The notes below the pieces were generated by a model. It saw only the letters and a program-made list of their open reading frames with translations, searched no databases and was not told where the DNA came from. From an uncultured Chthonomonadaceae bacterium (lineage in GTDB: Bacteria > Armatimonadota > Chthonomonadetes > Chthonomonadales > Chthonomonadaceae), in NCBI GenBank assembly GCA_963835065.1, contig CAWIEK010000063.1, positions 192,001 to 256,000 of the forward strand: a DNA stretch of 64,000 bases. Direction: 5' to 3'. The translations under genes were made by a program, and so were the position numbers. Positions 1,355 through 62,041 of the stretch are shown here, piece after piece. Positions within the stretch are counted from its first letter, which is position 1. Each line of letters opens with the position of its first letter.

Positions 1355-1801
1355 ATGGAAATTGCAGATTTAGCGGAAATCGAGGGGCGCGCGTACCCGG
1401 CGCGGCGGCGAACGCAAAATCTGGTCGGCGGCGCGTCTCCGCTTCAGGCTGCCGCGTTCAGCATGGGCTACGTCACGCTGGAACCCAACGGCGGGCAGGT
1501 TCCGTGGCACAATCAGGAGCAGGAAGAAGTGTACTTCGTGCTGGAAGGAACCGGGGAAATGTGCCTGGGCGCAGAGCGGCAAGTCATGACGAGCGGGCAG
1601 GCCGTGTACATTCCGTCCGGCGTGTTTCATCAAATGACCAACCTGGGCGATACGCCCCTGAAAATGCTCTACTGCTACGGCCCCGCCGGCGAAGTCGCGC
1701 ACTGGAAGCAGGAACTCGACGGCACACTGCCCAAAGCCGGGCAGGACGCGCCGCCCTTGCCGGAGGGGGCGCAGCCGCAGCATACCAATGATGAGCGATG
1801 A
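1355..1801 (+). CDS. Cupin domain protein
   Basis: 'PWHNQEQEEVYFVLEG...GQAVYIPSGVFHQMTN' cupin motifs; ATG at 1355 after AAAGGA. Confidence 0.9.
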   Translation: MEIADLAEIEGRAYPARRRTQNLVGGASPLQAAAFSMGYVTLEPNGGQVPWHNQEQEEVYFVLEGTGEMCLGAERQVMTSGQAVYIPSGVFHQMTNLGDTPLKMLYCYGPAGEVAHWKQELDGTLPKAGQDAPPLPEGAQPQHTNDER

Positions 1802-1856
1802 ATGATGAGTGATGAATATGAGTTTGTTCATCACTCATCACTCATCATTCATCACT
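1787..1856. repeat. Tandem-heptamer inverted repeat (ARTGATG x4 / CATCAYT x4)
   Basis: aatgatg agcgatg aatgatg agtgatg, ~10-nt loop, ttcatca ctcatca ctcatca ttcatca; supplies the cupin stop codon. Confidence 0.9.
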
Positions 1857-1868
1857 TTGCCTAACACC

Positions 1869-3026
1869 ATGACTACAACCCACCACATCGGCATCCTTAT
1901 GAACGGCGTCACGGGGCGCATGGGAACCAATCAGCACTTGATGCGTTCCCTGGTCGCTATACGGGAACAGGGCGGCATCCCGCTTCCCAACGGCGATACC
2001 ATTCTGCCTGAACCTGTTCTGGTCGGGCGCAATGCGGCGAAACTGGAAAAACTGGCGCAGCAGGCGGGCGGGGTACGCTGGACAACCGATCTGGATACGG
2101 CCCTTGCCGACCCGAACAACCAAATCTATTTTGACGCGCAGTTGACGCAGTTACGCGCGTCCGCCACGCAAAAAGCGATTGCGGCGGGCAAGCACATTTA
2201 TTGCGAAAAGCCTACGGGTGTCAGCGTCCACGAAGCTTATGGCCTGTATCTCGCGGCGAAAAACGCGGGCGTCAAGCATGGCGTGGTGCAGGACAAATTG
2301 TTTCTGCCCGGCCTGCTTAAACTGAAATGGCTGATTGACAGCGGCTTTTTCGGGCGTATTCTATCGGTGCGGGGAGAATTCGGCTACTGGGTGTTTACGG
2401 GCGAGGATCAAATTGCGCCACAACGCCCCTCGTGGAACTACCGGCAGGAAGATGGCGGCGGCATCATCGTGGATATGCTCTGCCACTGGCGTTATGTGCT
2501 GGACAATCTGTTCGGCAGGGTGCAAAGCGTGTCGTGTTTGGGAGCCACGCACGTTGCAAGCCGCGTGGATGAGCAGGGGAAGCCGTATGCCTGCACCGCA
2601 GACGACAGCGCGTATGCTACATTTCAATTGGAAGGCGGCATTATCGCGCACTTCAATTCCTCGTGGTGCGTTCGGGTGCGGCGCGACGACCTGCTCACGC
2701 TGCAAGTGGACGGCACGAAGGGCAGCGCGGTTGCCGGACTGCGCGATTGCGTGATGCAGCCTTACAACGGTACGCCGCGTCCCGTCTGGAACCCCGACAT
2801 AGCCAGCCCCATCCATTTTGCCGAGAGTTGGATGCCCGTTCCCGCCAACCAAACCTTCGATAACGGCTTCAAAGCGCAATGGGAACTGTTTCTCAAGCAT
2901 GTGGTTCTGGATACGCCCTTCCCCTACGACCTGCGCGAGGGCGCAAAAGGCGTCCAATTAGCCGAAGCCGGAATCGAGTCATGGCATAAGCGCTGTTGGG
3001 TAGATTTGACGGAGTTACAGGTGTAA
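1869..3026 (+). CDS. Gfo/Idh/MocA family oxidoreductase
   Basis: Rossmann 'NGVTGRMG', 'KHIYCEKP', 'GGGIIVDMLCHW'. Confidence 0.92.
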   Translation: MTTTHHIGILMNGVTGRMGTNQHLMRSLVAIREQGGIPLPNGDTILPEPVLVGRNAAKLEKLAQQAGGVRWTTDLDTALADPNNQIYFDAQLTQLRASATQKAIAAGKHIYCEKPTGVSVHEAYGLYLAAKNAGVKHGVVQDKLFLPGLLKLKWLIDSGFFGRILSVRGEFGYWVFTGEDQIAPQRPSWNYRQEDGGGIIVDMLCHWRYVLDNLFGRVQSVSCLGATHVASRVDEQGKPYACTADDSAYATFQLEGGIIAHFNSSWCVRVRRDDLLTLQVDGTKGSAVAGLRDCVMQPYNGTPRPVWNPDIASPIHFAESWMPVPANQTFDNGFKAQWELFLKHVVLDTPFPYDLREGAKGVQLAEAGIESWHKRCWVDLTELQV

Positions 3027-3068
3027 GGGATAAGTGGCAAGGGATAAGTCATATAAGGAAAAGCGGTT

Positions 3069-4156: not shown

Positions 4157-7100
4157 CTAATCCACGTACACAAACTCATTGGCGCAGAGGAGTATCTGGC
4201 AATACTGCTCCCATGCGGCAGAGTCTTTCGCCGTCGCGCGGGCGCGCTGCAAGAAGGATTGGGCAATGCGGGTTTCGTCCTCACCGGCGGGGCGTCCGTA
4301 CAGCAACAGGTACGCGCGCTGGATGCGGGCAATGGCGCTGTTCGGGCCGTCGGGGATTTCCGTCGCCAATCGCTGCGCAAGGGCGCGGGTCTGGTCGAGG
4401 ACGAATGGGTTGTTGAGCAGGTACAGGGATTGCGGCGCCACTGTGGAGACGGTACGCCGATCCACGCAGGCCGTCGAATCCGCGCCATCGAACAGGGGCG
4501 CGAACCCGGCGCGATCCGAGCGAATGGTCATGTAATACAGCGTCCGGCGCGGAACGGTGAAATCCCGGTACGCCACGCCGCCCATCGTCTTGTCCAATTT
4601 CCCGGACGCGGCCAGCAAACTGTCGCGCACGGCCTCGGCTTCCAATCGCTGCCGCATCATGCGCCCCACAAGCCGATTGTCCGGGTCGGCCTTCACGGTT
4701 TCCGCTCGCCCCTCGCTCGCCTGCTGATACGTCGCCGACAGCAGTATCAGCCTGTGCAGCTTTTTGGTAGACCAGGAGCAGGCGAAGGTGTCAGGTTTCA
4801 GGTTCCAGGTATCAGGGCTTGCAGATTGAAAGGTCTTTCCTGAAACCTGAGACCTGAAACCTGACACCTGTGTGTCCTTCCCTGACCCCTGACCCCTGAC
4901 CCCTGACCCCTCCACGAAGTGGCTTGCCAGCCAGTCCAGCAGTTCGGGATGCGTGGGTTTTTCGCCGAGGAAGCCAAAGTTGCTGGGTGTGCCGACGATT
5001 CCCTTGCCGAAGTGGTGCTGCCAGACGCGGTTGACCCACACGCGGCCTGTCAGTGGGTGCGTGTCGGATGCCAGCCATTCCGCGAGTTGGAGGCGTCCGC
5101 TGCCCTGCGTGATGGGCGGCTGGTTTTCGCCCGCGATGACAACCGGGAAATGGCGCGGAACCATGTCGCCCAATCGGGCGTAACTGCCCCGGATGTGAAC
5201 GCGCACGTCATGGACGCCCGCGTGGGGGCTTTCGGGACAGCCTCCCTCCTGCGCAGCGTTGGCAAACGCGATGGGCGGAGGCGGGCTTTTGCGCAGGGCG
5301 TCCAGCTGCGTCTGCGCTTTTGCGATGGCGGCGCGGGCTTCGGGCGACAGTTGGCTTTCTTCCGCCGGGTTTTGTATCCAGAACGGGCTGCTTGCGTCCG
5401 CAGCGGTAAACGAATGGGCAAACTGCTGAATGGCCTGCTGCGCGTTGGCGGGAATTGCGGCTGCGGTTCCGCTTCCATCCGCAACGGCTTGCCGAACCAG
5501 CGCCAGGTCGGGATTGAACACCGCGTCGGGCGTGGCGTTGCGATGCCGGTCCGCCATGTCTTCAAAGCGCCACACGCCCGCGTTGCCGTAGCTGTCCGTA
5601 TGCGGGTTGCCCTTGCCGCCTTGCAGGGGATCGGCCATCAGATCACGGGCCAGATTCCAGGCGCGCATAGCCTTCACGCCCGATTGTGACAGAGAGTTGA
5701 TATTTGCCAGAACCGTTCCTGATGCAGTCGGGGATGTGCTGTTGGCAGCGCCGACTTCCGTAATGGTCAGGTCTACAACCGTCGTGTCGAAGCCGTAGTT
5801 TTCTTTGGGCAGGACGGCCAATTCGATCTGGTCGCCCTGCCGCACGGACACGGTTTTCAGATTGGCGGCAGTATGTCCCTGCGCAAAGTCCTGCTTGCCG
5901 CCATTGGGAAACTCGCCCGTCGCCAGTTCCCGCGCTCCTCCCGCGCTGCGCTGATCGAGCGCCCAGGCAATGCCGTCGCCCCCGTTGGGGTCGGCATCCG
6001 CCACGCCCCCCGTAATCTGCACGGTTCCTGTAATCGGGCTTTGCCACGCGACGACAACGCCGTTCGTCGGGCCGGGATGGACGCACACGGAACGGGGCGG
6101 GAGGGTCAGGGAACTAAGCGGACGGGGCGTGTCATTGGTGTTAATAAGCGCATTGGGGCAGTCTGCCGCGCCACGCCACGCGCTTACGCCCTTAATACCC
6201 GAAGCGTCCGCCTGTGACTGCAGCATCAGCGGGTAATCGCCCGTTTTCAAAAAATCGTTCCACTGCCGGAACGCCCAGAGTTGTAAGTTTTGCGACGCGG
6301 CAAAGGCTTCGGGTGTCTGCGTTGCCTGCCCAATCGGGCGATGCGCGTACAGCCATGTGGCCTGCGCATACCGCTCGGTTTGGGGCAGCAGGCTGCGGGC
6401 ATGGTCGCGCAGGACGTTGTCGCGCATCTGTTTCACTTGCGCCGCGCTGCTCGCCAGTTCCTGTTGATACGCTTCCCGCCGCGCTTTGGCCTGCGGCGTG
6501 TCCAGCGAAACGCGCAGGATGGACTCGCCCGCCCCTTTGGGCGACAGCTTTGGCAGGATGTGCGTGCTAAAGAAAATCCCCGCAAGCCCATAATAATCTT
6601 TGGTGGAAATAGGATCGAATTTATGATCGTGGCAACGGGCGCAGGCAACCGTCAGCCCCATCATGCCCCGGCTGATAACATCCACCTGATCGTCGGCAAT
6701 GTCGGTCAGGATTTTATCTTTGTCCGCATCCCCATTGCCCCAGTTGCCGATAGCCAGCAAGCCGGTGGCGATAATGCCATCGGGGTTAATGGTGATTGGT
6801 GGTTGGTGGTTGGTGGTTGGGCTATTCTGTTCCCTGTTTCCTGTTCCCTGTTCGCTCCCTGACCACTCTGGAAGCAAATCTCCCGCAATCTGATACTTGA
6901 GGAACCAGTTGTAGGGCAGGTCGCGGTTGAAGGCGTTGACGATCCAGTCGCGGTAGCGCCAGGCTTCGCTGATGTCGCCGTCACTGCCCGATCCCCGCGC
7001 ATCCAGGCTGTCGGCGTAGCGTACCAAATCCAGCCAGTGCCGCCCCCAACGCTCGCCATAGGCGGGGGAGTCAAGCAGGCGATTGACGACCTTTTCCCAA

Positions 7101-7564
7101 GCGTCCGGCGATTTATCTTTGACGAACGCTTCTACGTCTTCGGGGGTTGGCGGCAGACCCGTCAGGTCGAACGAGGCGCGGCGAATCAGCGTCCGGCGAT
7201 CCGCCGGGGCAGCCGGTTTCAAGCCTTTAGCTTCCAGTCCCGCCAGAATAAAGCGGTCAATCGGGTTCTTGCACCACGCCACGTTCTTCACTGCGGGTAG
7301 AGCCGGGTTCTTCACCGATTGAAACGACCAGAAGGAGGTTCGATTTTGGATTTTCGATTTTGGATTTTCGATTGCCGATTGTGAATTGGCGATTGGCGAC
7401 TGCTTGCCTACTGTTCCCTGTTCCCTGTTCCCTGTTCCCTGTCCTTTCGTCTTCTGCCCCTGTGCCAATACCGCGCAGGCGGTCAGCAGGCATAGGGACG
7501 CGCCCGCAAGCAGACCTGCAAACGGCGCTTGCTTGAAACATTGGGAAGGATGGGGAGTTGCCAT
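4157..7564 (-). CDS. DUF1549/DUF1553 (PSD1) domain secreted protein with heptamer-repeat insertions
   Basis: 'NPIDRFILAGL', 'YGERWGRHWLDLVRYADS', 'CARCHDHKFDPI', 'PTHPELLDWLA', 'RLEAEAVRDSLLA', 'LLCANEFVYVD'; signal peptide. Confidence 0.92.
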   Translation of the reverse strand: MATPHPSQCFKQAPFAGLLAGASLCLLTACAVLAQGQKTKGQGTGNREQGTVGKQSPIANSQSAIENPKSKIQNRTSFWSFQSVKNPALPAVKNVAWCKNPIDRFILAGLEAKGLKPAAPADRRTLIRRASFDLTGLPPTPEDVEAFVKDKSPDAWEKVVNRLLDSPAYGERWGRHWLDLVRYADSLDARGSGSDGDISEAWRYRDWIVNAFNRDLPYNWFLKYQIAGDLLPEWSGSEQGTGNREQNSPTTNHQPPITINPDGIIATGLLAIGNWGNGDADKDKILTDIADDQVDVISRGMMGLTVACARCHDHKFDPISTKDYYGLAGIFFSTHILPKLSPKGAGESILRVSLDTPQAKARREAYQQELASSAAQVKQMRDNVLRDHARSLLPQTERYAQATWLYAHRPIGQATQTPEAFAASQNLQLWAFRQWNDFLKTGDYPLMLQSQADASGIKGVSAWRGAADCPNALINTNDTPRPLSSLTLPPRSVCVHPGPTNGVVVAWQSPITGTVQITGGVADADPNGGDGIAWALDQRSAGGARELATGEFPNGGKQDFAQGHTAANLKTVSVRQGDQIELAVLPKENYGFDTTVVDLTITEVGAANSTSPTASGTVLANINSLSQSGVKAMRAWNLARDLMADPLQGGKGNPHTDSYGNAGVWRFEDMADRHRNATPDAVFNPDLALVRQAVADGSGTAAAIPANAQQAIQQFAHSFTAADASSPFWIQNPAEESQLSPEARAAIAKAQTQLDALRKSPPPPIAFANAAQEGGCPESPHAGVHDVRVHIRGSYARLGDMVPRHFPVVIAGENQPPITQGSGRLQLAEWLASDTHPLTGRVWVNRVWQHHFGKGIVGTPSNFGFLGEKPTHPELLDWLASHFVEGSGVRGQGSGKDTQVSGFRSQVSGKTFQSASPDTWNLKPDTFACSWSTKKLHRLILLSATYQQASEGRAETVKADPDNRLVGRMMRQRLEAEAVRDSLLAASGKLDKTMGGVAYRDFTVPRRTLYYMTIRSDRAGFAPLFDGADSTACVDRRTVSTVAPQSLYLLNNPFVLDQTRALAQRLATEIPDGPNSAIARIQRAYLLLYGRPAGEDETRIAQSFLQRARATAKDSAAWEQYCQILLCANEFVYVD
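4788..4910. repeat. In-frame heptamer inverted repeat (TCAGGTT / AACCTGA) plus CCCCTGA x4 inside a CDS
   Basis: gtgtcaggtttcaggttccaggtatcagg...cctgaaacctgagacctgaaacctgacacctg...cctgacccctgacccctgacccctgacccc. Confidence 0.9.
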
Positions 7565-7687
7565 GCGCTTTTCCTCTGGATTGATTTGCGGCCTGGATAG
7601 TTTTCCGCACAAGACATTCGTGGTACAATACACACATCAACATAAACCTGAACACTCAACGCTCAACGCTTAACAGAGACGCACCGC

Positions 7688-36089: not shown

Positions 36090-36503
36090 ATGGTTGTTTC
36101 CTCTGCTGCCGTAAGTTTGATTGTGCTTAGTCTGTTTGCCATGTTCTGGATGGCGATACGTGAGCGCGTCACGCGTCTGGATGCCAGATTGCCCTATCAT
36201 CAGGCCGCCTATCAGCAGGATCGCCGCAAGGGGCGCTTTTATTTCAAGTCGGTGTGGACAGGGCTGCTGTCCGCGTTTGCGGGCATGGCCTGCCTGCAAG
36301 TGATGGCAAATACCCTGCTCAACGCCAACAACACCCGCAATGTCGTCAACGGCGCGGCCTATGGATTGGGGTTGTGGGGATTGCTGGTAATCGGCCTGGT
36401 CTGGTCGCAAATCGGCCAGCGCACCCTGGAACCCAATTCCGACGGCAAGATGCTGACACCGACCGAGGAAAGGCATAAGGCACAAGATAAAAGGCAAAAG
36501 TAG
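36090..36503 (+). CDS. Hypothetical membrane protein (3 TM) between rplK and rplA
   Basis: RBS AAAGGAG; three hydrophobic segments. Confidence 0.75.
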   Translation: MVVSSAAVSLIVLSLFAMFWMAIRERVTRLDARLPYHQAAYQQDRRKGRFYFKSVWTGLLSAFAGMACLQVMANTLLNANNTRNVVNGAAYGLGLWGLLVIGLVWSQIGQRTLEPNSDGKMLTPTEERHKAQDKRQK

Positions 36504-36554
36504 TCAGTAAATTGTACTTTTATCTTATATCTTTTGCCTTCTATCTTATGCCTT
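36470..36554. repeat. Degenerate tandem-heptamer inverted repeat (AAGGCAW / WTGCCTT)
   Basis: aaggcat aaggcac aagataa aaggcaa ... tatctta tatcttt tgccttc tatctta tgcctt. Confidence 0.75.
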
Positions 36555-36561
36555 GTATTTC

Positions 36562-36594
36562 GTGGAAGGAACCATTCGGCTCCGCTAACACCAC
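36562..36594 (+). promoter_or_regulatory. L1-binding autoregulatory RNA site upstream of rplA
   Basis: GTGGAAGGA...TCCGCTAACACCAC resembles the GTGGGAGG...CCGCTA..ACCAC L1 operator found before rplA in many non-proteobacteria; abuts RBS AGGAG. Confidence 0.65.
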
Positions 36595-36610
36595 AGGAGA
36601 CACTAACAAA

Positions 36611-37423: not shown

Positions 37424-37426
37424 TTC

Positions 37427-37566
37427 TTACCTCACCGGACGTTCTCTTGTAAATATACCCTTCTCCTGGCCGCGCCCTTTACATGAGCGCGTTGTAAGCG
37501 AACGCGCTTCCTTACGCTAGGGGAAGGGCTTTTTATATCGATTCTCCAGCTTCGGGGGTGAGGTAA
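37427..37566. repeat. Composite boxC-like palindrome
   Basis: TTACCTCACC...GGTGAGGTAA ends; shares CTCCTGGCCGCGCC and TCGGGGGTGAGGTAAT with 57362-57415. Confidence 0.6.
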
Positions 37567-37674
37567 TCCTTTCACCTTCCTGAAACCGCTTCCGTTTCCC
37601 CGCGTAGTAGCACTGTTACCAATGTCCCTGATTAAAAGCCGGGCATTGAAAATACCCGTCTGAATGGCATTCCG

Positions 37675-37734
37675 CGTAGGGACATAACATGTTATGTCCG
37701 GGGTGCAGAGGACATAACATGTTATGTCCCTACG
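37675..37734. repeat. GTAG-type REP doublet (REPIN)
   Basis: CGTAGGGACATAACATGTTATGTCC-10 nt-GGACATAACATGTTATGTCCCTACG. Confidence 0.85.
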
Positions 37735-37971
37735 GACGCAATTCATTGACACACAGGCATTTACGTCCGCAGGACGTTCCGCCGCAGGCTATTCAGACGG
37801 TGGTTTTCAACCACCGGCCAAATGTGTCTTATTTACAGGCAGGGGAAGTCACTCTCCGTGCCGAATATCCCATTAACGTGTTGACAGCGTTTCTCAATCT
37901 GCGAACTTCGTCCGCGAAATTTCCATTTGTGAATTGTCTTTTGTTCTTTTCTTTGCAAAGGCTTGAACTCT

Positions 37972-41112: not shown

Positions 41113-41229
41113 GAATGATGAATGATGAATGATGAATACAGTTCCACGCTGACTTATCTGCAAATCGGCTGAAGAAACGTCCGCACTCATTGTTTTCCAC
41201 TCATCACTCATCATTCATCATTCATCATT
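41113..41229. repeat. Tandem-heptamer inverted repeat (AATGATG / CATCAYT)
   Basis: Between permease stop and ATPase RBS. Confidence 0.9.
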
Positions 41230-42281: not shown

Positions 42282-42408
42282 AAAGTAGTCAGTAGCCAGT
42301 AGTCAGTAGTCAGTAGTAATGCTTGACTACTCATAATTTTGCATCATAAACATAATTTCCAATAGCCGGGTTCTCTACTGACTACTGACTACTGGCTACT
42401 GACTACTT
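42282..42408. repeat. Tandem-heptamer inverted repeat (AGTAGTC / GACTACT), 35-bp perfect arms
   Basis: Variant AGTAGCC mirrored as GGCTACT. Confidence 0.95.
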
Positions 42409-42419
42409 TGGAGTTCTCC

Positions 42420-44191: not shown

Positions 44192-44326
44192 CGCCGTGAG
44201 TTGAAACTCGCGGCTGTGATAACGAAGTCCGCCTTCGCGGACTCCATCGTAGAAAGATGATCTGTACCGCCTTGAGTCCGCGAAGGCGGACTTCGTTATC
44301 ACAGCCGCGCAATTTATTGCACGGGC
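44192..44326. repeat. REP-like doublet with 36-bp perfect inverted repeat
   Basis: CGCGGCTGTGATAACGAAGTCCGCCTTCGCGGACTC (44209-44244) and exact reverse complement (44274-44309). Confidence 0.9.
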
Positions 44327-47848: not shown

Positions 47849-49668
47849 ATGAGCCTCCAAACTCCACAACTTCAGATGAACCGTATGGGAGGAACGCGCG
47901 CATCCTCCGATGCCCTGAGCGCCAAACTGCAACAGGCGCGACGGCGCATCCGCAGCCTGATGCTGCTGCGCTTTGGGTCGCTCGGCCTGCTGCTGTCCGC
48001 TCTGACCGCGCTTGTGCTTGTCGGATTGGGCAAAACGCATGTTATCGAACTGGCTGCGCCCCCGATGTTAGGACTGCTGATCGGCGTTGGCGTTGCCATT
48101 GGCTTCGCGTTCGCCTTTTGGCCGCGCTTGACGGACGTGGATGTTGCAAAACTGACGGAACGCCGCGCCGACTTGAAGGAGCGTTTGAGCAGCGCAGTCG
48201 AGTTTCAGCATCAAGGGGTTGACGCAGCCGCCCCCTTCTTTAAGGAGCAATGGACGGACGCCAATGTCCACGCGCAGGGCATCAGCATCCCCGCCCTGTT
48301 TCCCGTTCGCGTTCCCCGTACCTTTTATGGCGGCCTGATCCTGGCACTGCTGCTGTTCGGCGCGTTTTTCCTGCCCAATCTGCCCGTGTTCTGGTCCAAA
48401 GAGCGCAAAAAGGATTTGGAAGATGTGAAAGTGGCGGCGATTGCCATCCAAAAGGTTGCGGAAGACACGGAAAAATCCGCCGATACGCAAAAACTGGACG
48501 AAGCCAAAAAAGCCGCGCAGGATGTGAAGGCGCTTACCAACAAAATGAAGATGGGCAAATTGGAAAAGAAGCCCGCCCTGCTTGCCATGTCCAAGCTGAC
48601 GCAGAAACTGGAGGAGCAAAAGCAGAAACTGGAAACCGGCCTGCCCAAAAAGTCTATGGACGATGCCGCCAAACAGTTCAAGCAGTCGCTGGACAAAATG
48701 CAGCAGGATGTGGAAAAGTCGCAGCAGGACAAGCAGGCTAACGCCGCCAAACCGCAAACCAAAAACGGCCAAAAGCCAATGGACAAAACCGCGCAGAACA
48801 ACCCCGCCAACAAGCCCAACGAAGCCATGAAGCAGATGCAGCAGGCGCTTCAAAAAATGCAGCAGGCCATGCAGATGAACGATACGTCGCAAATGCAGAT
48901 GGCGATGGAAAAGATGGCGCAGCAGATGCAGCAGAACGGGCGCAAATGACGCCGCAGCAAATGCAGCAGATGCAGCAGGCATTAGCCCAACTGTCGCAAG
49001 CCCTGCAAAATACGGAAATGCAGCAAATGTCGGAGCAGATGCAGCAGCTTGCGCAGCAAATGCAGCAGATGCAGGGGCAGATGTCGCCGGAGCAGATGCA
49101 GCAACTCGCGAACGCGCTCAAGAAAATGGCCGGCCTGGCAAAAAACCCCGGCAAAGGCATGGCAAAAGGCCAATTGGACGCCAAAGCGCTGGAAGAACTG
49201 TTGCAGGCGCTCAAGGATGGCAAGCTGACGATGTGCATGGGGCAGGGAAACAAACCCGGCTTCGGGGGCAAAGGACCGGGCAAAGGCTTCGGCGGGCAGG
49301 GCGACCTGAAAAACCCCATGAAAGACCCCGGCGTCACCAAAGCCGAACTGCTCGTCGCCAACAAAAGCCAGTGGAGCAAGGCAGCCGGCAAGCAGGGCGA
49401 CCCCAAGAAGTTTGCCGAGTACCTCGCCATGTCGTCCAAACCGTCCAAACACGCCCCGAACGGCATGGTGATGGGAACCCGGACGCAGCAGGGCGACGAA
49501 CTCCAACTCAACATGACTGGCGATCCCGACCCGACCCAGAGCAGCTCGCCCTACTACAAAGCCTACGAAACCAGCAAAAAGCAGGCGGAAAGCACCCTGG
49601 ACAAAGAAGCCGTCCCCGCCGCCTACAAAAAGCAGGTGAAGGATTATTTTGATAGTATTCATCCTTGA
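47849..49668 (+). CDS. Membrane-anchored Gln/Met-rich coiled-coil protein of a MoxR cluster (frameshift near 48940)
   Basis: TMs, 'LKERLSSAVEF', QM-rich coils, C-terminal 'VPAAYKKQVKDYF'. Confidence 0.78.
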
Positions 49669-49796
49669 AGTAGTCAGTAGTCAGTAGTCAGTAGTCAGTA
49701 GAGAACCTCCTTCTATTAGCTGGTGTCACAATGAACAAGACTTTGAGTAAGCAGGCATTTCTACTGACTACTGACTACTGACTACTGACTACTTCT
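49667..49796. repeat. Tandem-heptamer inverted repeat (AGTAGTC x4 / GACTACT x4)
   Basis: Stop codon to MoxR RBS. Confidence 0.93.
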
Positions 49797-52728: not shown

Positions 52729-52864
52729 TAAGAGCCTATCCCATCAGGCGCTGCGCTGAACTAAGCGGTAGGGCACTGAAAGTTCGTAGTTCCTGCATCT
52801 CTATCAACCACGAACTATCAACTATCAACTGCTTAGAGAATTGTCCTATGAGGATAGGCTCTAA
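52729..52864. mobile_element. MITE with IS5-family-like ends and TAA target duplication
   Basis: TAA|GAGCCTATCC...GGATAGGCTC|TAA; contains AACTATC heptamers. Confidence 0.75.
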
Positions 52865-53337: not shown

Positions 53338-53393
53338 CTTATTGTTTACGCAGCCATCCTGCTATCAACTACGAACTATCAACTATCAACTGC

Positions 53394-54311
53394 TTATTTG
53401 AGGCTGTAGGTCACGCCGAAGCTGCCCAGGTTGCTCGTGCCTGCCGCGAGGAAGGCCTGGGGAGCCGTGCCCGTTGTCGCGTTCTGCGCATTGGAGCTGG
53501 AAGCGGCATTGCCGCCTGCGGAAACCTGCCCGCCCTTCAAGGATTTGGAATGTCCATCTCCCAGAGCGTAGATGCCGCCCTCGCTGTGGCGACCCTTGGG
53601 GAAGGTGGCGCTGAAGCCATTGCTGCAGGTCAGAGTGCTGGGGGGCGTGGGGTTCGTGCCGTCGCACTTGTAGCCACCGGGAACGCCGGCTTCGTACACA
53701 ACGACGCCATTATTCGGGGGAGCCGCGCCGGGCGCGAGTTCCGTGAAGTACAGCACGTTGATACCATCGCCGGCAGACGAGGAATAGCCGTTGCTGCCCA
53801 GAGGAGTTTCGCCACTGGTCACCGCGTTGGCGAGGTCGCCTTTAACTTCCGTCAGCAGCACCGTGCTGGCGGGGGCCGTCATCGAAGCCAGCGCCGCGCC
53901 ATTGGCGCAGTTGTAGTTGTAGCTGTAGGAAACCGGGTACAGAGCCGGCGTCGTCGTCGTAGCGGCAACGGGAGCCGTGGGATCATCCGGGCAGCGAAGC
54001 ACCTGCGCGTTTTTGGTGTAGGAATACGTGGAACCCGCCCAGCCGACGCCGGGAGTGATGGCGGTGTTGGCGCTGGCCTTGACGCCGCGCCCGGAGGGGA
54101 ACTGCTCATCGAAATCCTGGACGTACATCAGGATGCCCAGGCCGACCTGCTTGGTGTTGCTAAGGCAGCTGGCCTGCCGCGCCTTTTCGCGCGCCTGCGC
54201 AAAGACCGGGAACAGAATGGCCGCGAGAATCGCGATAATGGCGATCACGACGAGCAATTCGATCAGCGTGAAGCCCTGTGCGGACTTGCGGGGGGTTGAA
54301 GCGTGTGTCAA
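53394..54311 (-). CDS. Prepilin-type N-terminal cleavage/methylation protein (H-X9-DG)
   Basis: TTG start after AGAGGAG; '[14 protein letters not shown]'; '[14 protein letters not shown]'. Confidence 0.9.
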
Positions 54312-54626: not shown

Positions 54627-54929
54627 GGCATTTGGAAGAAATTTATGAAAAATTCGCTTCCGAACCCCTTCGCGGGAACTTTTTTCTGTATTCATGGGAC
54701 ATAAACTTGTATTTGCGCTGTATTTTGATTTAAATATAGGCTAAATTCCGCAACGGACGCTGTAAAAAATAGTGGCTGTGAGAGAAGGAAAACGAAGCCT
54801 TCCTGTTCAATTGACGCTTTATTCCAACAGCCTCCATGCGCTTCGCGCCTTAGAGCATGAACATACTGGATTGTCCGAACACCGAATACCGAACACCGAA
54901 CACCGGCATTTGCAGCACAGGTACATTTC

Positions 54930-55889
54930 TTGGAAAACACGCGCCATCTTTTAATGGGAATAGCAACGCTGGCAGGCGCATGGCTGACGCTGAATGTGCC
55001 CGCCGCGCTTTGCGCCCGCGCCGAACCGCCTGTCCCCCGCGTTGTCACCACATTCGCGTACAGCCCGGCTCCTGACCGGGGCATGCCCCTCGTCCGCGTA
55101 CGCCTGAACAACGGACACCGCAATACCGCGTCGGCGGCCTTTGTGCTGGATACGGGCTTTACGGCAAGCTTGATGACCGACCGATTGGCGCAGGAATTGA
55201 ACATGGAGGGCGAACCGGCCCACTTCGCGGATGGCTCCCCGGCCTGCTTCGCCGATGGCAAGCCCTTGCGGCAGGTCACGGCGGGTCTGCTGATGGGCAG
55301 CCTGCAAACGGATGCGCGCAATTTTCTGGTAGTGAAAGCCTATCGGCTGGATTTGCTCGATTGTCCTCTGGATGGGGTTTTGGGAGGGGATTTTCTGGCG
55401 AATTATGCGGTTCTGTTTGATTTTCGAACGCATACGGTGACGCTGTGGCAGGGCGGGGATTTGACGGAAGCGGAGCGGCGAAGTGTCAACATGCAGGATG
55501 CTGTTACGCTTCCCCGCGCTAACAAAACACCGGAAAGTTTTGACGTCCGCGTCCGTTTAAGCAGCCCGCGCGGACAAAGAGACGTGACATTGGCAATAGA
55601 CACGGGCGGGACGCGCACATTGATTGCTCCACAGGACGCCCGCGCCCTGGAACTGGAACCGACCCGCATAGCCGTGCCGCAGCGTACCGTCTTCGGAAAT
55701 TTGAAAGCAAACGAGGCAAAAATTCCTGCCCTGGAATTCGGAAGCATCCGCATTTCCGACTTGCCCGTACGCTATCTGGTGCAGGAACACCCCAATATGC
55801 CGCCGCATCTGGGCCTCGATGTGCTTTCCCACTACCGCCTGCTCCTGGATTATCCCGCCAACAGGCTTTATCTCAAACCCAACGGGTAG
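54930..55889 (+). CDS. Secreted two-domain retropepsin-like aspartyl protease
   Basis: Two DTG motifs ('VLDTGF', 'IDTGG'), 'DGVLGGDFL', 'LGLDVL'; start uncertain. Confidence 0.85.
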   Translation: MENTRHLLMGIATLAGAWLTLNVPAALCARAEPPVPRVVTTFAYSPAPDRGMPLVRVRLNNGHRNTASAAFVLDTGFTASLMTDRLAQELNMEGEPAHFADGSPACFADGKPLRQVTAGLLMGSLQTDARNFLVVKAYRLDLLDCPLDGVLGGDFLANYAVLFDFRTHTVTLWQGGDLTEAERRSVNMQDAVTLPRANKTPESFDVRVRLSSPRGQRDVTLAIDTGGTRTLIAPQDARALELEPTRIAVPQRTVFGNLKANEAKIPALEFGSIRISDLPVRYLVQEHPNMPPHLGLDVLSHYRLLLDYPANRLYLKPNG

Positions 55890-55892
55890 GGT

Positions 55893-56003
55893 TCAGGTGT
55901 CAGGTTTCAGGTTTCAGGAAATGCTCTGCTGTTGCTCTTAATATCATAGTAACAACAAAGCGATGAAAGCATGGTCCCTGACACCTGAAACCTGACACCT
56001 GAC
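55893..56003. repeat. Tandem-heptamer inverted repeat (TCAGGTK / MACCTGA)
   Basis: Between convergent genes. Confidence 0.88.
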
Positions 56004-56010
56004 GCCTCCC

Positions 56011-57153
56011 CTACCGCCACTGCACCCCCGCCGACACGCTAAAATCCGGGCCGATATTGCTGAACGCGGGCAGATGGTAATTGTGGATGTCGCCGTTTTC
56101 GGAAAACGAGAGGGTGAGCAAATGGTGGCGATCCAGCACCCGGCGGTAACCGAAGGTTGCGGTAGACTGCCAGCCATCCGCAAAGCGGTTGCCGGTACGA
56201 ACCACGCGGGTATTGCCATCCAGTTGCAGGACAAAACTATCGCGGTTGTTGGCGCGGTATTCCAGCGCGGCCAGCGTTTGCAGCGTGTTCGGCTCCGCGA
56301 CAGGAACCCGACTTGCGTGTCCCAACAGCGCGCCGCCCACATTGGCGTACACGATAATGTCGCGTCCCAGGCTGTATTGCCCATCCACGCTCACGCCCAC
56401 ATCCACATTGCCACTGCCCATCAGCAGCGTCGGGTTGCCCGTCGGCAGTTTCAATCCGGCGCGCAGGGCAAGGGCGGCGCGGCCATTGGGCCGAAGCAGG
56501 CCACGCTTGATCGTGATATTGGTTTCGCCCAATCCGAACGCGCTGCCCTGATTAACCACAACCTGCCCATTCGCGTTCGCCAGAAACAGCGTGCTCTGGT
56601 ACTTCCGGTAAAAATCGCGCCCGGCGGGATTGTCTTCGCCGTCGCCCTGAAACCCGAAAAGGCTATGGTAGCCGCTCAGGATGCCGTCCAGAATGCCGCC
56701 GTTGCGCCATTGCAGCGGAATGGAAATGCCAAGTTCCGTTTGCCGCCCCAGCCCTCGCTTCCACGCGAACGCCACGCGCTGATACTCATTGTCTTCCCGC
56801 ACCTGCGCCCGCCCCTTGGAAGCCGGAATCAGCAGATTGTTGCTGATTTCCAATTGCAGGTTATAGGCGTTGGCGCGGGCCGGCAGCGCAACGGCTGTTT
56901 CCGGCGCAAACTGGAGAAACAGCAGATTGTACGGGCGCGCGTCCCGAACCGGAATCGGCCCGCGCGGATTGCCGTACAGCGGATTGTCGCCCGCGCCCTG
57001 CGCCTGGCAGAAGGCAGAAGACAGAAGGCAGAAGACAGAAGGCAGAAGACAGAAGGCAGAAGGCAGAAGACGGAAGATGGAAGATGAAAGATGTAAGATG
57101 AAGCGTACAAGGCGAATTGCGCAAGGCAAGAGTTGTTTGAAGCGCGATGGCAT
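56011..57153 (-). CDS. Outer-membrane beta-barrel protein (DUF3187-like) with repeat-derived signal peptide
   Basis: 'GGILDGILSGYHSLFG', 'LKLPTG', 'FSEN', 'PDFSVSAGVQWR'. Confidence 0.7.
   Translation of the reverse strand: MPSRFKQLLPCAIRLVRFILHLSSSIFRLLPSAFCLLPSVFCLLSSAFCQAQGAGDNPLYGNPRGPIPVRDARPYNLLFLQFAPETAVALPARANAYNLQLEISNNLLIPASKGRAQVREDNEYQRVAFAWKRGLGRQTELGISIPLQWRNGGILDGILSGYHSLFGFQGDGEDNPAGRDFYRKYQSTLFLANANGQVVVNQGSAFGLGETNITIKRGLLRPNGRAALALRAGLKLPTGNPTLLMGSGNVDVGVSVDGQYSLGRDIIVYANVGGALLGHASRVPVAEPNTLQTLAALEYRANNRDSFVLQLDGNTRVVRTGNRFADGWQSTATFGYRRVLDRHHLLTLSFSENGDIHNYHLPAFSNIGPDFSVSAGVQWR
57007..57102. repeat. In-frame heptamer array (GAAGRCA then AAGATGN)
   Basis: About 13 units encoding 'FILHLSSSIFRLLPSAFCLLPSVFCLLSSAFC'. 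Confidence 0.9.
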
Positions 57154-57433: not shown

Positions 57434-58153
57434 ATGCACAATTCCCCCCAACACCGAATACCCAATACCGAATACCGAACACCCAACACCGCCTTCACCC
57501 TGATCGAGTTGCTCGTCGTAATCGCCATAATTTCCATATTGGCCGCGCTGCTGTTTCCCGTGTTCGCGCAGGCGCGCGCCAAAGCCAGGGCGACCTCGTG
57601 CGCGTCCAATATGAAACAGGCGGGTTACGCCTTTGCAATGTATGCGCAGGATTATGATGGTCTGTACCCTTGCGCCGTTGACCCCGCAGACCGCGTTACC
57701 CCGCAAATCTGGAACAATTTCCCCGACTTCAAGGCGCAAATCCCCACGCTGCCCTGGCTGCATGAAACCCTGATGCCCTACGTGAAATCCCCGGAGATAT
57801 TCCATTGTCCGAGCGATACGGGTACGCTCATCGAAGACTTCACCGGGCTGTATCTTGGAGCCGACCATTCCCTGTTTCGCAAATACGGAACCAGTTACCT
57901 GTACCGCACGGAAATCGCCCTCCGTCATTCGGGCGACGCCTTTTTCCAAACCCCCTCGCAGCTCAATGTATACATGGACGGATCGGGGCTATGGCATGGC
58001 AGCGGGGCGGACGACCTGGCTATCGGCGTGTTAAAGTTCGACCGTACCAATCCCCTGCTATTTGCGCGCCGTTTCAATACGCTGCACGGCGACGGGCATG
58101 TGAAAAGCCTGACATTCAGCCAGGTTTGGGAACTCTGGGCAACGCCGTTGTAA
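57434..58153 (+). CDS. Prepilin-type N-terminal cleavage/methylation protein
   Basis: '[29 protein letters not shown]'; 'DGHVK'; leader made of CCGAAYA repeats. Confidence 0.9.
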
Positions 58154-58332: not shown

Positions 58333-60390
58333 ATGTCTGAATACTCTCTAAGTGAGAACCGAGCCAATTACGCGCCCCAAAAAACGGAGGCCGCAGCAGG
58401 AGGGAATATGGAAGTACAAACCAGAGAAGCGCAATCTAAAGGCGCGCGGCCGGAACAGGGAAGTTCTCCCTCGCCCTTGCGCTCCGCCGAGGCTTTCGAT
58501 AGTTACTGCGTACAGGTGCAAAGCCGTCTCGCCGAACATGCGGCGCAGCGCATTCATTTTTTACAATCCGCTTTTGAACGCTTGACGCGCCTGCTGCACA
58601 CGGCGCGCGATGTAGAAGATACTTCGCTTTATAACGAACTCTGGCAGCACCGCGTTGCCGTGCGCGAACTGTTGGAGGCGCTCACGCAGGTTGGCAGTTC
58701 CGTTACAGCCGTTGCTACTTCCACTGCTTCCGCTTCCGCCGCTGTTTCCCCTGCTCCCCCCGCCTCCGGCCTGAGCCACGCGGACAGCGGTTTGGCCGGC
58801 AACAAAGCCCCTTCCAGTACGCCTCTTTATTCCCCTTCCGCTTCCTCTCCCGCCATTGCGGACAAAACAGGTTTGGACAAAACAGGGAATGACACTGCGG
58901 CTTCCACATCAGGAACAACGTATCCTGCCGTTCCCCTGCCTGCCAAGTCCCTGCCGCATCCCTCCGGCGCGGCCAATGGACACGCGCAGCGCGACCCGGA
59001 AATGGACGAGAATGACGAGCGCTCTTCGCCCAATTCCCGCGACTACAACAGGGACGGCCAATATGACAACAGAATGGAACCGGCCCCGCGTCCCCTGCGC
59101 CATCCTGTCCGCCCGCTGATGGACATCGAAACGGATGCCGTGGAACTGCGTAAGCAATTACAGGATTGGGCGAACCGCTTCCCCCTGCGAACCGCTTCCG
59201 GCAATCTGCACGTGCCCAACTGCCTGCGCCTGCGGGCGATGGCCTGCCGTCAGCGCCGCTTGGAAGAAGAAGCCGGCGATACGGAAGTGGAGGAAGTGAC
59301 CGAATTAAGCAAAGATATTGTAGATATTTTAGATCGCGCGGGCGATGAAGAATACACGGTTGCGCTGGATTACGACGTAGAGCCGCCGCCCACAGCATTC
59401 CAGTGGGGCGAACTGGCCGAGCGCTATGATGAAACGGCGATGGCGGAAGAAGCGTTCGAGTGGTGGGTTGCCAACCGCGCCATTCTGTCGGTTTCTGACG
59501 TGCAGCAGTTAGCCGAGTCCGTTGCGGCCATTCAGCAGCGGTTTAATCGCCTCCTGTTCCGCATTGGAGCGCGCGACCCGTTCCAGCAGCAATTATTTGA
59601 TGACCTGCGCGTGTGGGCTAAAGAAGCGCAGTGTTACCTGTACAGCCTCCGCCCCAAAGTGCCGATTGCGGAACTGATTGAAAAAGCGCAGATGATTGAC
59701 GAAGCATGGGAGCAGGCGCGCGAACCCGTGCGCGCGCTGGAAGAGCGGCAGCAAAGCGTAGACGCGGTTGTAGATATGGTAGCCGCGCCCGGATTTGGCG
59801 AAAACGAGGCCGAGGACGAATCACGCTTGCAGGCCGCGCTGATGCACTGCCGCGAATTGCGTATTCCCGCGTCCGACCGGCGATTGCGCGACGCGTTGCT
59901 GCCCTGGGCGGCGTTCCTGGAAGGCGACGAGCGTTTCAAAGAATTACTGCGCGAAATCAATCTGGAATGGGAGCGGCGTCAGGAAATCGGACGCCCCGAA
60001 GCCGTAGAGGAAGAGCCGTCCGGCGCTCTGGACGAACTGGCGGCGGAACTGGAAGCCGTGCGCGAAGTGACGCGAGGCAAGCGCTGCCTGCTGCTGGGCG
60101 GAACGTGCCGCGAGGAGAACCGCCGCAAGATCGAGGAAGCGCTGCAATTGTCCGAACTGGTCTGGCCCAGCACCAAGCCGTCCGACCCGCTTTCCAAATT
60201 TGACACGGAACTGCGCCATTCCGATATTTGCGCCCTGCTCACGCGCTTTTCCCGCAAGGAATGGAAGAACGCGCAGGACATTTGCGCCCGCGATGGTAAA
60301 AAGTTCGTGCATCTGACAACGGGCTACGGCGTGTCGCAGGTGGTTCGCCACTTCTACACGCAAATCGCGCCGCAGAAGGCGGGAAGTTGA
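58333..60390 (+). CDS. Hypothetical acidic helical protein with DUF2325-like C-terminal domain
   Basis: 685-aa ORF with host-like codon use; tail 'LLLGG...ICALLTRFS...FVHLTTGYG'. Confidence 0.7.
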   Translation: MSEYSLSENRANYAPQKTEAAAGGNMEVQTREAQSKGARPEQGSSPSPLRSAEAFDSYCVQVQSRLAEHAAQRIHFLQSAFERLTRLLHTARDVEDTSLYNELWQHRVAVRELLEALTQVGSSVTAVATSTASASAAVSPAPPASGLSHADSGLAGNKAPSSTPLYSPSASSPAIADKTGLDKTGNDTAASTSGTTYPAVPLPAKSLPHPSGAANGHAQRDPEMDENDERSSPNSRDYNRDGQYDNRMEPAPRPLRHPVRPLMDIETDAVELRKQLQDWANRFPLRTASGNLHVPNCLRLRAMACRQRRLEEEAGDTEVEEVTELSKDIVDILDRAGDEEYTVALDYDVEPPPTAFQWGELAERYDETAMAEEAFEWWVANRAILSVSDVQQLAESVAAIQQRFNRLLFRIGARDPFQQQLFDDLRVWAKEAQCYLYSLRPKVPIAELIEKAQMIDEAWEQAREPVRALEERQQSVDAVVDMVAAPGFGENEAEDESRLQAALMHCRELRIPASDRRLRDALLPWAAFLEGDERFKELLREINLEWERRQEIGRPEAVEEEPSGALDELAAELEAVREVTRGKRCLLLGGTCREENRRKIEEALQLSELVWPSTKPSDPLSKFDTELRHSDICALLTRFSRKEWKNAQDICARDGKKFVHLTTGYGVSQVVRHFYTQIAPQKAGS

Positions 60391-60497
60391 TAGTTTGTAG
60401 TTGATAGTTGATAGTTGATAGCTCGAAGTTCCTGTAGCGCTATCAACCGTCAGCTGGCAGCGAATAACTATCAACTATCAACTACAAACTATCAACT
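60385..60497. repeat. Tandem-heptamer inverted repeat (AGTTGAT / ATCAACT), 32-bp perfect arms
   Basis: Variant AGTTTGT mirrored as ACAAACT; spans stop codon to next ATG. Confidence 0.95.
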
Positions 60498-61940
60498 ATG
60501 ATAAACGCTAACGCTTTTCAAGGGTCTTTGCGCAATGCCGTGCTTGTGCCATTGCTGGGACTGTTTCTGCTGGTCGCCATTCTGTTTTTTCAGGTAAGCA
60601 ATCTGATGGAGGCCGCGCGTTGGACGGATCACACCTATCAAGTGATTCTGGAAGCGCGTTCGCTGCGCCTCGCCATTCAGCGTATGCAAAATGCCGAGCA
60701 GGATTACCTGCTGGCGCATGAGAAAACCTATCAAGGCCAGTACGCGCAGGCCAGATCCGACGCGAAACTTGATATTGAACATTTATTGGGGCTGGTTGTG
60801 GACAATCCGCCGCAAGTGGCGCGGATGCAAACCATCAACAGCGGTTTCGACCGTTGGCAGGCGAATGCGCAGACTGAGAAGGTTTACGATCCGAACCACG
60901 ATTACCGCGCAATGCTGGCGCAGCGGCAAAGCGCGGTAAATAGCCTGGACGCGCAGCTCAACGAATTTCGCGGCGTGGAAGAGAAACTGCTTGTGGAGCG
61001 CACAGAGGCGACGCGAAATGCGGCGCATACAACGCGGACGGTGGTAGCCGCGCTTGCTCTGCTTTTGGGCGTTGTGATGGCAATCTTCATTCGGCGGCAG
61101 TTGGTCACGCTCGCCGGCAGCTATCAGGGCGCGCTCAGTTCGGTGCAGGAACAGGCCGATGCCCTGCGCCGCAATAGTGAGGAGATTCATCGCAACAGCG
61201 AGGAGATCAAAGCCTTAAACGCCACGCTCGAACAGCGCGTGTTGGAACGCACGGCGCAGTTGGAAGCGTCTAATAAGGAACTCGAAGCCTTCAGCTATTC
61301 CGTTTCGCACGACCTGCGCGCGCCCCTGCGCAGCATTGACGGCTTCAGTCAGGCGCTGATGGAAGATTACGGCGACGTGATTGACGCAGAGGGCAAGAAA
61401 TATCTGGATCGCCTGCGCAACAACAGCCGCCAGATGGCCGGTCTGATTGACGATCTGCTGGCGCTGTCGCGCCTGACGCGGGCGGAAATGAAGCGTGTTC
61501 CCGTAGATGTAAGCGCGTTGGCGCGGAGCGTGGCGGAAGAATTGCGCCAGCGCGACCCGGAACGCAAAATTACCATCACGGTTGCCGATAATCTAAACGC
61601 GGAGGGCGACGAGCGGCTGCTGCATGTCGCCCTGGAGAATTTACTTGGCAACGCCTGGAAGTTCACGTCGAAAACGCCCGACGCGGTGATTGAAGTGGGG
61701 CAGGAAGCGCAGGACGGGCAAACCGTATTCTTTATACGCGACAACGGCGCGGGCTTCGACATGGCGTATGCCGACAAGCTGTTCGGCGCGTTTCAGCGGC
61801 TGCACGGCGTCAGCGAGTTCGAGGGAACCGGCATCGGGCTGGCAACGGTGCAGCGCGTGATACGACGGCACGGCGGGCGCATCTGGGCAAAGGGCGAAGT
61901 CGGCAAAGGCGCGACGTTCTACTTTACGCTGAGCGTTTGA
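60498..61940 (+). CDS. CHASE3 sensor histidine kinase
   Basis: Two TMs, 'WTDHTYQV', H-box 'SYSVSHDLRAPL', 'NAWKF', 'DNGAGF', 'GTGIGLA'. Confidence 0.95.
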   Translation: MINANAFQGSLRNAVLVPLLGLFLLVAILFFQVSNLMEAARWTDHTYQVILEARSLRLAIQRMQNAEQDYLLAHEKTYQGQYAQARSDAKLDIEHLLGLVVDNPPQVARMQTINSGFDRWQANAQTEKVYDPNHDYRAMLAQRQSAVNSLDAQLNEFRGVEEKLLVERTEATRNAAHTTRTVVAALALLLGVVMAIFIRRQLVTLAGSYQGALSSVQEQADALRRNSEEIHRNSEEIKALNATLEQRVLERTAQLEASNKELEAFSYSVSHDLRAPLRSIDGFSQALMEDYGDVIDAEGKKYLDRLRNNSRQMAGLIDDLLALSRLTRAEMKRVPVDVSALARSVAEELRQRDPERKITITVADNLNAEGDERLLHVALENLLGNAWKFTSKTPDAVIEVGQEAQDGQTVFFIRDNGAGFDMAYADKLFGAFQRLHGVSEFEGTGIGLATVQRVIRRHGGRIWAKGEVGKGATFYFTLSV

Positions 61941-61942
61941 GA

Positions 61943-62041
61943 AGTTGATAGTTGATAGTTGATAGAGACGCGCGGACGGTTAGCTGAACGCCCATCCTGT
62001 CAGAAGTACCGATGTTACTATCAACTATCAACTATCAACTA
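61943..62041. repeat. Tandem-heptamer inverted repeat (AGTTGAT x3 / ATCAACT x3)
   Basis: Between kinase stop and regulator RBS. Confidence 0.9.

Follow-up and report, generated by a model that had tools for sequence, protein, structure and literature searches.

Tandem-heptamer hairpins at gene junctions of a Chthonomonadaceae bacterium as probable gene-less copies of an intervening-sequence-type cassette

Introduction

The stretch of DNA considered here (the window) is 64,000 nucleotides of contig CAWIEK010000063.1 (positions 192,001 to 256,000, forward strand) from an uncultured Chthonomonadaceae bacterium, whose assembly, GCA_963835065.1 (G000 in what follows), has 8.0 Mb in 71 contigs, a GC content of 57% and a completeness of 92%. 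Among its genes, which include rpmG, secE, nusG, rplK and rplA, lie 14 hairpins whose arms are tandem repeats of a seven- or eight-nucleotide word. These hairpins, their relatives elsewhere in the genome, and the gene for a four-helix-bundle protein (TIGR02436/PF05635, the intervening sequence, or IVS, protein) that some related cassettes enclose are the subject of this paper. Two relatives served for comparison: G002, of which 1.77 of ~7.5 Mb was sampled (flanks ~83% identical), and G001, of which 0.16 Mb was sampled.

Results

Arrays in the window were located with Tandem Repeats Finder (TRF) and an inverted-repeat search, and genes were called with our own script. The original prediction, made from the letters of the window and its open reading frames (ORFs), had named 14 hairpins, and all were present: TRF reported a period-7 array on both arms of 14 of 14 elements, the period being 8 at 35939. 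The 25 longest inverted repeats of the window include 12–13 of the 14; the elements at 36470 and 61943 lie outside this set, and both of their arms were seen. Folding of eight elements gave z-scores of −5.4 to −13.7 relative to shuffled sequences, and a chance origin of the hairpins is excluded. The predicted start at or near a stop codon held for only nine of the 14, which have a stop within ~6 nt. Element 4788 lies in frame within a gene, 32463, 34147 and 34387 flank tRNAs, 55893 has convergent neighbours, and 1787 and 36470 run into the final codons of the gene upstream. Rfam matches in the window were confined to three tRNAs, and 0 of 14 elements lie inside rRNA.

The hairpins belong to a genome-wide family. 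Arrays of period 7, 8 and 9 number 2,332, 591 and 179 in G000 and 1, 1 and 2 after a codon-block shuffle, whereas periods 5 and 6 are represented by only 19 and 53 arrays; the merged total is 3,084. Neighbouring arrays no more than 150 nt apart form 525 inverted pairs, 30 direct pairs and 598 pairs with another word; in 420 cases two arrays of different words follow each other at a distance of 25 nt or less. The inverted pairs occupy gaps between co-oriented (418), convergent (54) or divergent (27) genes, with 19 inside genes and 7 at contig edges. Among the 418 in co-oriented gaps, 260 start −8 to +6 nt from the stop and 242 end 5–25 nt before the next start. Where at least 40 nt of intergenic room was to spare, 62 of 141 elements began within 6 nt of the upstream stop, compared with 8.7 expected. 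The adjacent stop was TAG in 193 of 323 cases versus 1,767 of 6,868 genome-wide, and TAG was already enriched at the empty orthologous sites of G002 (26 of 56 versus 73 of 266, p = 0.007, after 113 mappings off any stop were dropped).

Arrays also occur within coding sequence, 605 of them well inside 280 predicted genes. The DUF1549/DUF1553 gene of the window (4157–7633, minus strand) has three in-frame heptamer inserts, which code for low-complexity peptide loops. A general rule that three copies of a word place stops in all frames was rejected because arrays of AGGTTTC and AGGGAAC are free of stops and are translated as part of proteins.

Sixty-three units occur among the 525 inverted pairs. 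The units had been thought unrelated in sequence, and this view has to be given up: AG is present in the 5′ arm unit of 464 of 525 pairs and in the 3′ arm unit of 1 of 525, and identical words recur at dozens of loci in G000. Arms have a median length of 4.3 units; counted as AG anchors per arm, five is the mode (451 of 1,050 arms), and four are found in 260. Variant units are not scattered point changes but a short list of recurrent words, some of them two changes off the main unit; the 69 variants of AGTAGTC include AGTAGCC (34) and AGAAGTG (13), with positions 1, 2 and 4 invariant. The two arms of an element are corrected against each other or copied together, since, where both bear variants, 169 of 267 pairs have them in mirrored register, compared with 125 of 439 registers shifted by one unit. 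A G-quadruplex reading was rejected for most words because their units lack G-tracts: the most abundant paired words contain no GGG, which among paired words is confined to minor classes such as AGGGAAC. A subclass of 8-mers with ACACAGAG arms (for example at C2:73893, C11:139100 and C32:11531) combines a fixed 15-nt outer stem with long nested purine/pyrimidine inner arms, and its word is kept between G000 and G002 better than the words of the heptamer classes.

Loops measure 50–59 nt in 198 of 525 pairs. In the AGTAGTC class, 66 of 70 loops score above the shuffle threshold and are homologous, so that the spacers are not all unique, as had been supposed. Most of these loops measure 54–59 nt; indels are rare among them, and the median identity between pairs is 50%. 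They vary by an ordinary, transition-biased mutation spectrum (C>T 0.21, G>A 0.22, T>C 0.16, A>G 0.13) that has no adenine specificity. Relative to transcription they are oriented at random (30 same, 28 opposite, 12 mixed), so that the RNA-level role proposed for the loop finds no support. The loop profile also matches 12 loops that lie between arms built of other words, together with a G002 loop whose arms are mosaic; loops of the other classes lie mostly outside this family. A hidden Markov model of the AGTAGTC loop found no source beyond the elements at E < 1, and derivation of the loop from the four-helix ORF was dropped, the model giving no such match.

Whole elements have been copied to unrelated sites. 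In one pair of full elements, 3.9 kb from each other, the 54-nt loops are the same but for 1 nt and the flanking sequences are unrelated; at six further loci the loops are 82–90% alike, again between unrelated flanks. The original prediction saw an architecture conserved without sequence; in view of the AG anchor, units that track protein clade (see below), class loops of common source and copied elements, this is not supported.

Loaded and empty forms of the element share their arms. All three TIGR02436/PF05635 genes of G000 are framed by inverted arms, of AGTAGTC in cassette C8, AGGGAAC/AGGTTAC in C25 and AGAAAAGG in C33, and the C8 word is that of window elements 42282 and 49667. The three cassettes lie elsewhere in the genome, with none in the window. 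The hairpins had been likened to the empty shell of a non-polar cassette, a suggestion that fits these genes well, as does the half of the accompanying cargo guess that named TIGR02436. The other half, GxxExxY, fits in part: of three such genes, none of them in the window, one is framed by clear 9-mer arms, while by eye the arms of the other two look degenerate, and GxxExxY genes with 9-mer arms of their own occur in G000, G001 and G002. No transposase was found among 19 ORFs read between matching arms, the clear cargoes being PF05635 and GxxExxY. The operon junction that holds the C8 cassette measures only 22–33 nt in G002 and G001, where the cassette is absent.

Gene-less hairpins are present in rRNA as well. 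The 16S rRNA has one with AGGCATT arms, at a place where G002 has AGATATT, and both 23S rRNA copies contain hairpins of family words. A 135-nt AGTAGTC element lies in the 23S hairpin loop at RF02541 position 1218, which we take to be helix 45. The rRNA genes (L371, L376, L377) measure 1,696 nt for 16S and 3,223–3,224 nt for 23S, ~160 and ~300 nt above the Rfam models, with at least one repeat-bearing insert in 16S and at least three in 23S. By analogy with the IVS of Coxiella, cutting of the hairpin stems by RNase III would be plausible.

Comparison with G002 revealed that old sites are re-occupied by other word classes. In the tuf–rplA region G002 has hairpins at the same five places, with other words. 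Of 98 orthologous sites in G002, 42 hold an inverted pair, 23 a single array and 33 none; the arm words differ at all 42 paired sites (one change at 5, more changes or another period at 37), and the unit is identical at 3 of the 23 single arrays. Over 312 shared junctions, G002 has an array at 54 of 118 where G000 has one versus 19 of 194 where it has none, with a unit common to both genomes in 11 of the 54. The genomes speak different dialects: AGGCATT occurs 29.7 times per Mb in G000 and 0 in G002, and CGAGATA 0 and 19.7 times per Mb. Both loaded cassettes of G002 occupy sites of G000 empties of unrelated classes, one a 9-mer, and 7 of 17 GTAG-class sites carry in G002 the GGTAGAT-type word of its own C8-type cassette. 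The comparison of orthologous spacers that the original prediction had proposed recovered few of them: the orthologous loop ranks first at 4 of 31 shared sites, and at two of these four the heptamer-type arms have changed around a kept loop. Two processes are visible at shared sites: element replacement, seen in the two loaded G002 cassettes and in the closely spaced arrays of different words, and rewriting in place, seen in the orthologous loops. One of the loaded G002 cassettes stands at a site where G000 has an empty AGGCATT element followed by a toxin-antitoxin-like gene pair (G000:C24:82671-83578).

An element can also be present in one strain and precisely absent from another, at a TAG. 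The strain comparison covered window positions 32000–38000 and used contigs of near-identical strains in runs X1 and X3, from two studies. In one contig of each run 35372 is joined exactly to 35507, so that the nusG–rplK element is dropped and the AG fits both sides; the junction in G002 is the same 35372/35507 join. The elements have spread little outside the genus, where 0 of 27 rplK loci carry arrays. The rplK locus of G001 has no array at the strict threshold, with degenerate arms visible by alignment. Ten genomes with or without the PF05635 gene have 0–6 arrays of 7- or 8-mers per 40 kb; 40-kb samples from six gene-bearing relatives hold 5, 5, 6, 0, 0 and 0, most of them near the gene itself.

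Protein clade tracks word class. Relatives of the three proteins were collected at 80 (C8), 80 (C25) and 29 (C33) loci, in different collections that include kin. An arm was found beside 62 of 82 C8-, 72 of 82 C25- and 22 of 30 C33-group genes, and both arms as a matched inverted pair at 27 of 80 C8 loci. The protein–word comparison kept 155 rows and used a quick tree in which 78 of 152 branches were open. Units of the form AG-n-AG occur at 50 of 62 C8-clade loci, from 8 phyla, versus 5 of 71 C25-group loci, and period 8 in 33 of 39 C33-clade arms versus 2 of 113 C25-group arms; the more alike two proteins are, the more alike are their units (Mantel rho 0.21; maximum on shuffling 0.055). The window words AGGTTTC, AGGTGTC, AGTAGTC and AGTGATG recur beside four-helix genes in other organisms. 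This shows that protein clade and word class are coupled and does not imply binding, because gene and arms travel together, the collections differ and kin are included. The closest solved relative of the protein is PDB 2GSC, with five chains (E 1.5e-18), and the related Avd pentamer is described, in the portion of the source available, as holding flipped-out RNA bases between protomers (10.1101/2023.10.23.563531).

The elements, lone arrays and relics of the window are collected in Table 1.

Table 1. Repeat elements and arrays of the window, by position.
Position	Feature	Context
1787–1856	empty hairpin, AATGATG/AGTGATG arms, 10-nt loop	overlaps last codons of cupin gene (1355–1801, +)
4786–4870	empty hairpin, AGGTTTC/AGGTGTC arms	in frame within DUF1549/DUF1553 gene (4157–7633, −)
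4880–4911	lone CCCTGAC array	stacked next to the 4786 element, same DUF1549/DUF1553 gene
6790–6853	two stacked unpaired arrays, TGGTGGT and CTGTTCC	in frame, DUF1549/DUF1553 gene
7339–7442	stacked unpaired arrays, TTCGATT type and CTGTTCC	in frame, close to 5′ end of DUF1549/DUF1553 ORF
32463–32535	empty hairpin, GGGTGTC arms	tRNA-Tyr/tRNA-Thr gap; AGGGAGT arms in G002, none in G001
34147–34223	empty hairpin, AGGCATT arms	begins in rpmG TAG stop, precedes tRNA-Trp; other words in G002 and G001
34387–34500	empty hairpin, AGGTTTC arms, 50-nt loop	after tRNA-Trp, before secE; AGGGAGT-type arms in G002
35373–35506	134-bp insert, GGTAGAC arms at 35377–35409 and 35469–35498	at nusG TAG stop; missing in near-identical strains and in G002; 2-nt AG direct repeat at join
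35939–36070	empty hairpin, 8-mer AGGTGTTC arms	begins in rplK TAG stop; AGGTTGTT arms in G002
36469–36558	degenerate hairpin, AAGGCAW/AAGATAW arms	overlaps last codons of ORF 36090–36503, precedes rplA
41113–41229	empty hairpin, AATGATG arms, 60-nt loop	ABC-2 permease/ABC ATPase gene gap
42282–42409	empty hairpin, AGTAGTC arms with mirrored AGTAGCC variant, 57-nt loop	loop in AGTAGTC loop family
49667–49795	empty hairpin, AGTAGTC arms, AGTAGTC-family loop	precedes MoxR AAA gene
52801–52830	lone CTATCAA pyrimidine arm, likely relic	
53362–53391	lone CTATCAA array	on − strand, purine arm directly after stop of gene 53394–54311 (−)
54875–54905	lone CCGAACA pyrimidine arm, likely relic	
55884–56011	empty hairpin, AGGTTTC/AGGTGTC arms	convergent gene pair
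57447–57490	lone CCCAACA/CCGAATA array	in frame, start of ORF 57434–58153
60385–60499	empty hairpin, AGTTGAT arms with mirrored AGTTTGT variant	GGTGGTT-type arms in G002
61943–62041	empty hairpin, AGTTGAT arms	junction without array in G002
63944–63997	mixed 7/8-mer pyrimidine arrays	window edge

Three other features of the window deserve mention. The ORF at 36090–36503 (plus strand), in the rplK/rplA gap, encodes a predicted membrane protein of 137 amino acids with no Pfam match and is shared with G001 and G002. At 44194–44324 lies an inverted repeat of 51 nt, which contains an internal palindrome and has no heptamer structure; one arm has 25 matches in the genome, 0 of 25 within 1.5 kb of the four Y1 transposase matches, and it looks like a separate family of the repetitive extragenic palindrome (REP) type. 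The gene at 44362–47277 (plus strand) encodes a 971-amino-acid fusion of an M28 peptidase region with an aminoglycoside 3-N-acetyltransferase-like domain.

Discussion

The hairpins are a real and highly non-random family, in which IVS-type cassettes have spread far beyond rRNA. We read them as empty versions of a mobile cassette of the IVS type. In its loaded form the same arms enclose a PF05635 gene, whose product, a predicted pentamer, would read the five AG-anchored words that make up an arm; we assign this reading a probability of about 0.58. We infer both the binding of the arm by the pentamer and the mobilising chemistry. Under this reading the pentamer would bind a repeat arm and steer host recombination or repair, by which the hairpin would be copied either to a (T)AG site or on top of an element already there. 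Fold-back copying, together with an exchange of words between copies, would afterwards make the arms uniform, and empties would in this way take on the word that the genome's own loaded cassette uses. A separate horizontal arrival would be recorded in each unit class. Insertions would be tolerated, and so persist, because stop and ribosome-binding site are kept, because the array is read through in frame, or because it extends an rRNA stem where RNase III would excise it.

Parts of such a system have been published for Xanthomonas, Geobacter and Coxiella, and they were not found linked in the literature searched; the comparisons below go as far as the accessible portions of these papers. The helix-45 23S IVS of Coxiella burnetii has tandem heptamers before an S23p ORF and a stem cut by RNase III (PMC4990558), and rRNA inserts of the Candidate Phyla Radiation carry a PF05635-type protein at scattered sites (10.1101/2024.02.27.582315). 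The G000 elements share with rRNA IVSs the terminal inverted-repeat stem, the tandem heptamers, the PF05635 ORF and a presence, as gene-less hairpins, in 16S and 23S stem-loops. They differ from them in that nearly all copies lie outside rRNA, at stop codons, in tRNA gaps and in frame in proteins, and in that they number in the hundreds, with many words that are swapped at fixed sites. In Xanthomonas, GGGAATC forms inverted pairs of four units near stops, and Nostoc has GGGGA(C/T)T (PMC4692102). The likeness to the Xanthomonas repeats extends to period 7, a preference for four units, 70–75 convergent pairs, a sense-strand purine arm just after stops and positions kept between species. Those genomes have one word each, read as G-quadruplexes, whereas AGTAGTC, AGTTGAT and AGGCATT lack G-tracts. 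By the definition of short tandemly repeated repetitive and Xanthomonas-type repeats, G000 thus has the paired period-7 arrays of about four units close to stops and lacks the G-tract word. The available text of PMC4692102 contains neither 'four-helix' nor 'intervening'. Geobacter metallireducens has paired tandem hepta- and octanucleotides described as 'global regulator binding sites' (PMC2700814); they resemble the G000 elements in having three to five tandem 7- or 8-mers, opposite-strand pairs at variable spacing, several word classes and both intergenic and intragenic locations, but are read as regulator sites, and the available text proposes neither cargo gene nor mobility. Literature that ties a PF05635 gene to genome-wide repeat hairpins, word swapping or a clade–word code was not found in a search that left subscription papers and supplements mostly outside its scope.

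A bolder claim, which we hold only tentatively and judge rather less probable than its opposite, is that these are a distinct class of transposase-free mobile elements with a recognition code. A pentameric ring would read five AG-anchored 7- or 8-mer words, one per subunit, with each clade having its own word, and would install or overwrite hairpins at TAG stops, in-frame sites and rRNA stems. The rRNA IVSs and the cyanobacterial, Xanthomonas and Geobacter repeats would be its products, and the word spectrum of a genome would record successive invasions.

Several observations weigh against the mobile-cassette reading. Only 4 of 31 shared sites have loops that are clearly orthologous. As many as 352 of 436 loops have no neighbour above 70% identity, and the assembly offers no donor loop for the strain-specific element at 35377, the best match being 47%; simple copying and pasting accounts poorly for these findings. 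The absence of the 35377 element from other strains could be a precise deletion. Flanking direct repeats around the 525 elements are no commoner than in shuffled pairings, so that no general target-site duplication was seen; the 2-nt AG overlap at the single precise empty site is too short for this test to register. The few arrays in gene-bearing relatives mean that the PF05635 gene is insufficient for spread. G001 has no PF05635 match and yet 9 heptamer arrays in 160 kb, so the gene may not be necessary for the elements to persist. Only three loaded four-helix genes stand against 63 units among paired elements; most classes therefore lack a resident master in an assembly that is 92% complete. 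The p-values for the protein–word link are overstated, as the groups come from different collections with kin included, and the covariation is also expected from joint inheritance of gene and arms. We know of no catalytic activity on record for PF05635.

The rival account that survives best, although we consider it unlikely, is that replication slippage and fold-back template switching made the arms and drive their turnover, that the hairpins were kept after stops as RNase III sites or mRNA-stability signals, and that the four-helix gene is a passenger. Mirrored variants, strong folding, loops of near-fixed length with an ordinary transition-biased spectrum, and the conservation of sites between species (two heptamer-type sites keeping the loop while the arms changed) would all suit it, as would the position of the Xanthomonas repeats, which in the available text are mostly at conserved positions and unlinked to insertion sequence elements (Rehm et al., PMC4692102). 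However, slippage leaves unexplained the homologous loops at 66 unrelated loci and the near-identical copied pair, the clean 134-bp presence/absence and the loaded cassettes at conserved junctions, as well as the 464:1 polarity of AG and the use of the same word class by one protein clade in 8 phyla. The random orientation of the loops relative to transcription also argues against selection on RNA.

REP-derived hairpins (REPINs) and miniature inverted-repeat transposable elements (MITEs) are short, non-autonomous, intergenic inverted-repeat elements with a gene-bearing relative, and the G000 hairpins could be of this kind, with the four-helix gene as cargo and movement in trans by a separate enzyme, either an HUH/Y1 transposase or a GxxExxY nuclease-like protein. 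The short non-coding inverted-repeat form, in loaded and empty versions, is what such movement would leave; GxxExxY genes have 9-mer arms of their own in all three genomes; four Y1 transposase (PF01797) matches are present in the genome; and G001 combines elements with six GxxExxY matches and no PF05635 match. In contrast to REPINs and MITEs, however, the arms enclose no transposase, are made of tandem words that change between sister species, and lack a general target duplication. None of the four Y1 loci is framed by an inverted array pair, one transposase would have to accept 63 different terminal words, and it is the four-helix clade that word class tracks. We therefore regard movement in trans as improbable.

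The least probable of the three is a reverse-transcriptase (RT) writer, in which the pentamer would partner an RT, as Avd does in diversity-generating retroelements (DGRs), the arms would be made from a short template or the element copied via RNA, and the loop would be mutagenised: a weak bAvd-like match (E 2e-5 to 4e-4, below cut-off), the described homology of Avd and PF05635 (PMC10053308, in part), highly diverse loops with few indels, a young element without donor loop and the preference for transcribed, co-oriented junctions are in its favour, but loop changes lack adenine specificity, loop orientation is random and 0 of 2 RT genes lie by a four-helix cassette, one of them adjoining cas-like genes. 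DGR-type loop mutagenesis in particular was rejected on the absence of adenine bias from the mutation spectrum. Avd has a related fold, a pentameric four-helix bundle in which structured RNA is bound between the protomers (10.1101/2023.10.23.563531 and PMC10053308, available portions), and G000 differs from DGRs in having no linked RT and no adenine-specific mutagenesis. The two RT genes are untied to the hairpins; L007 (G000:C49:681456-682613) lies among cas-like genes, and L008 (G000:C50:52482-53912), which has a long N-terminal extension, among defence-like genes.

The mobile-cassette reading, if true, would provide a function for the widespread PF05635 family and an origin for rRNA intervening sequences, and it would explain the long-noted excess of heptamer repeats in bacteria. 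Homologous loops, a strain-level empty site, a preference for TAG and the coupling of clade and word make the mechanism directly testable. If the clade–word correspondence holds, the protein would be a small, reprogrammable reader of repeats. In this bacterium the elements rewrite operon junctions and add peptide loops to proteins.

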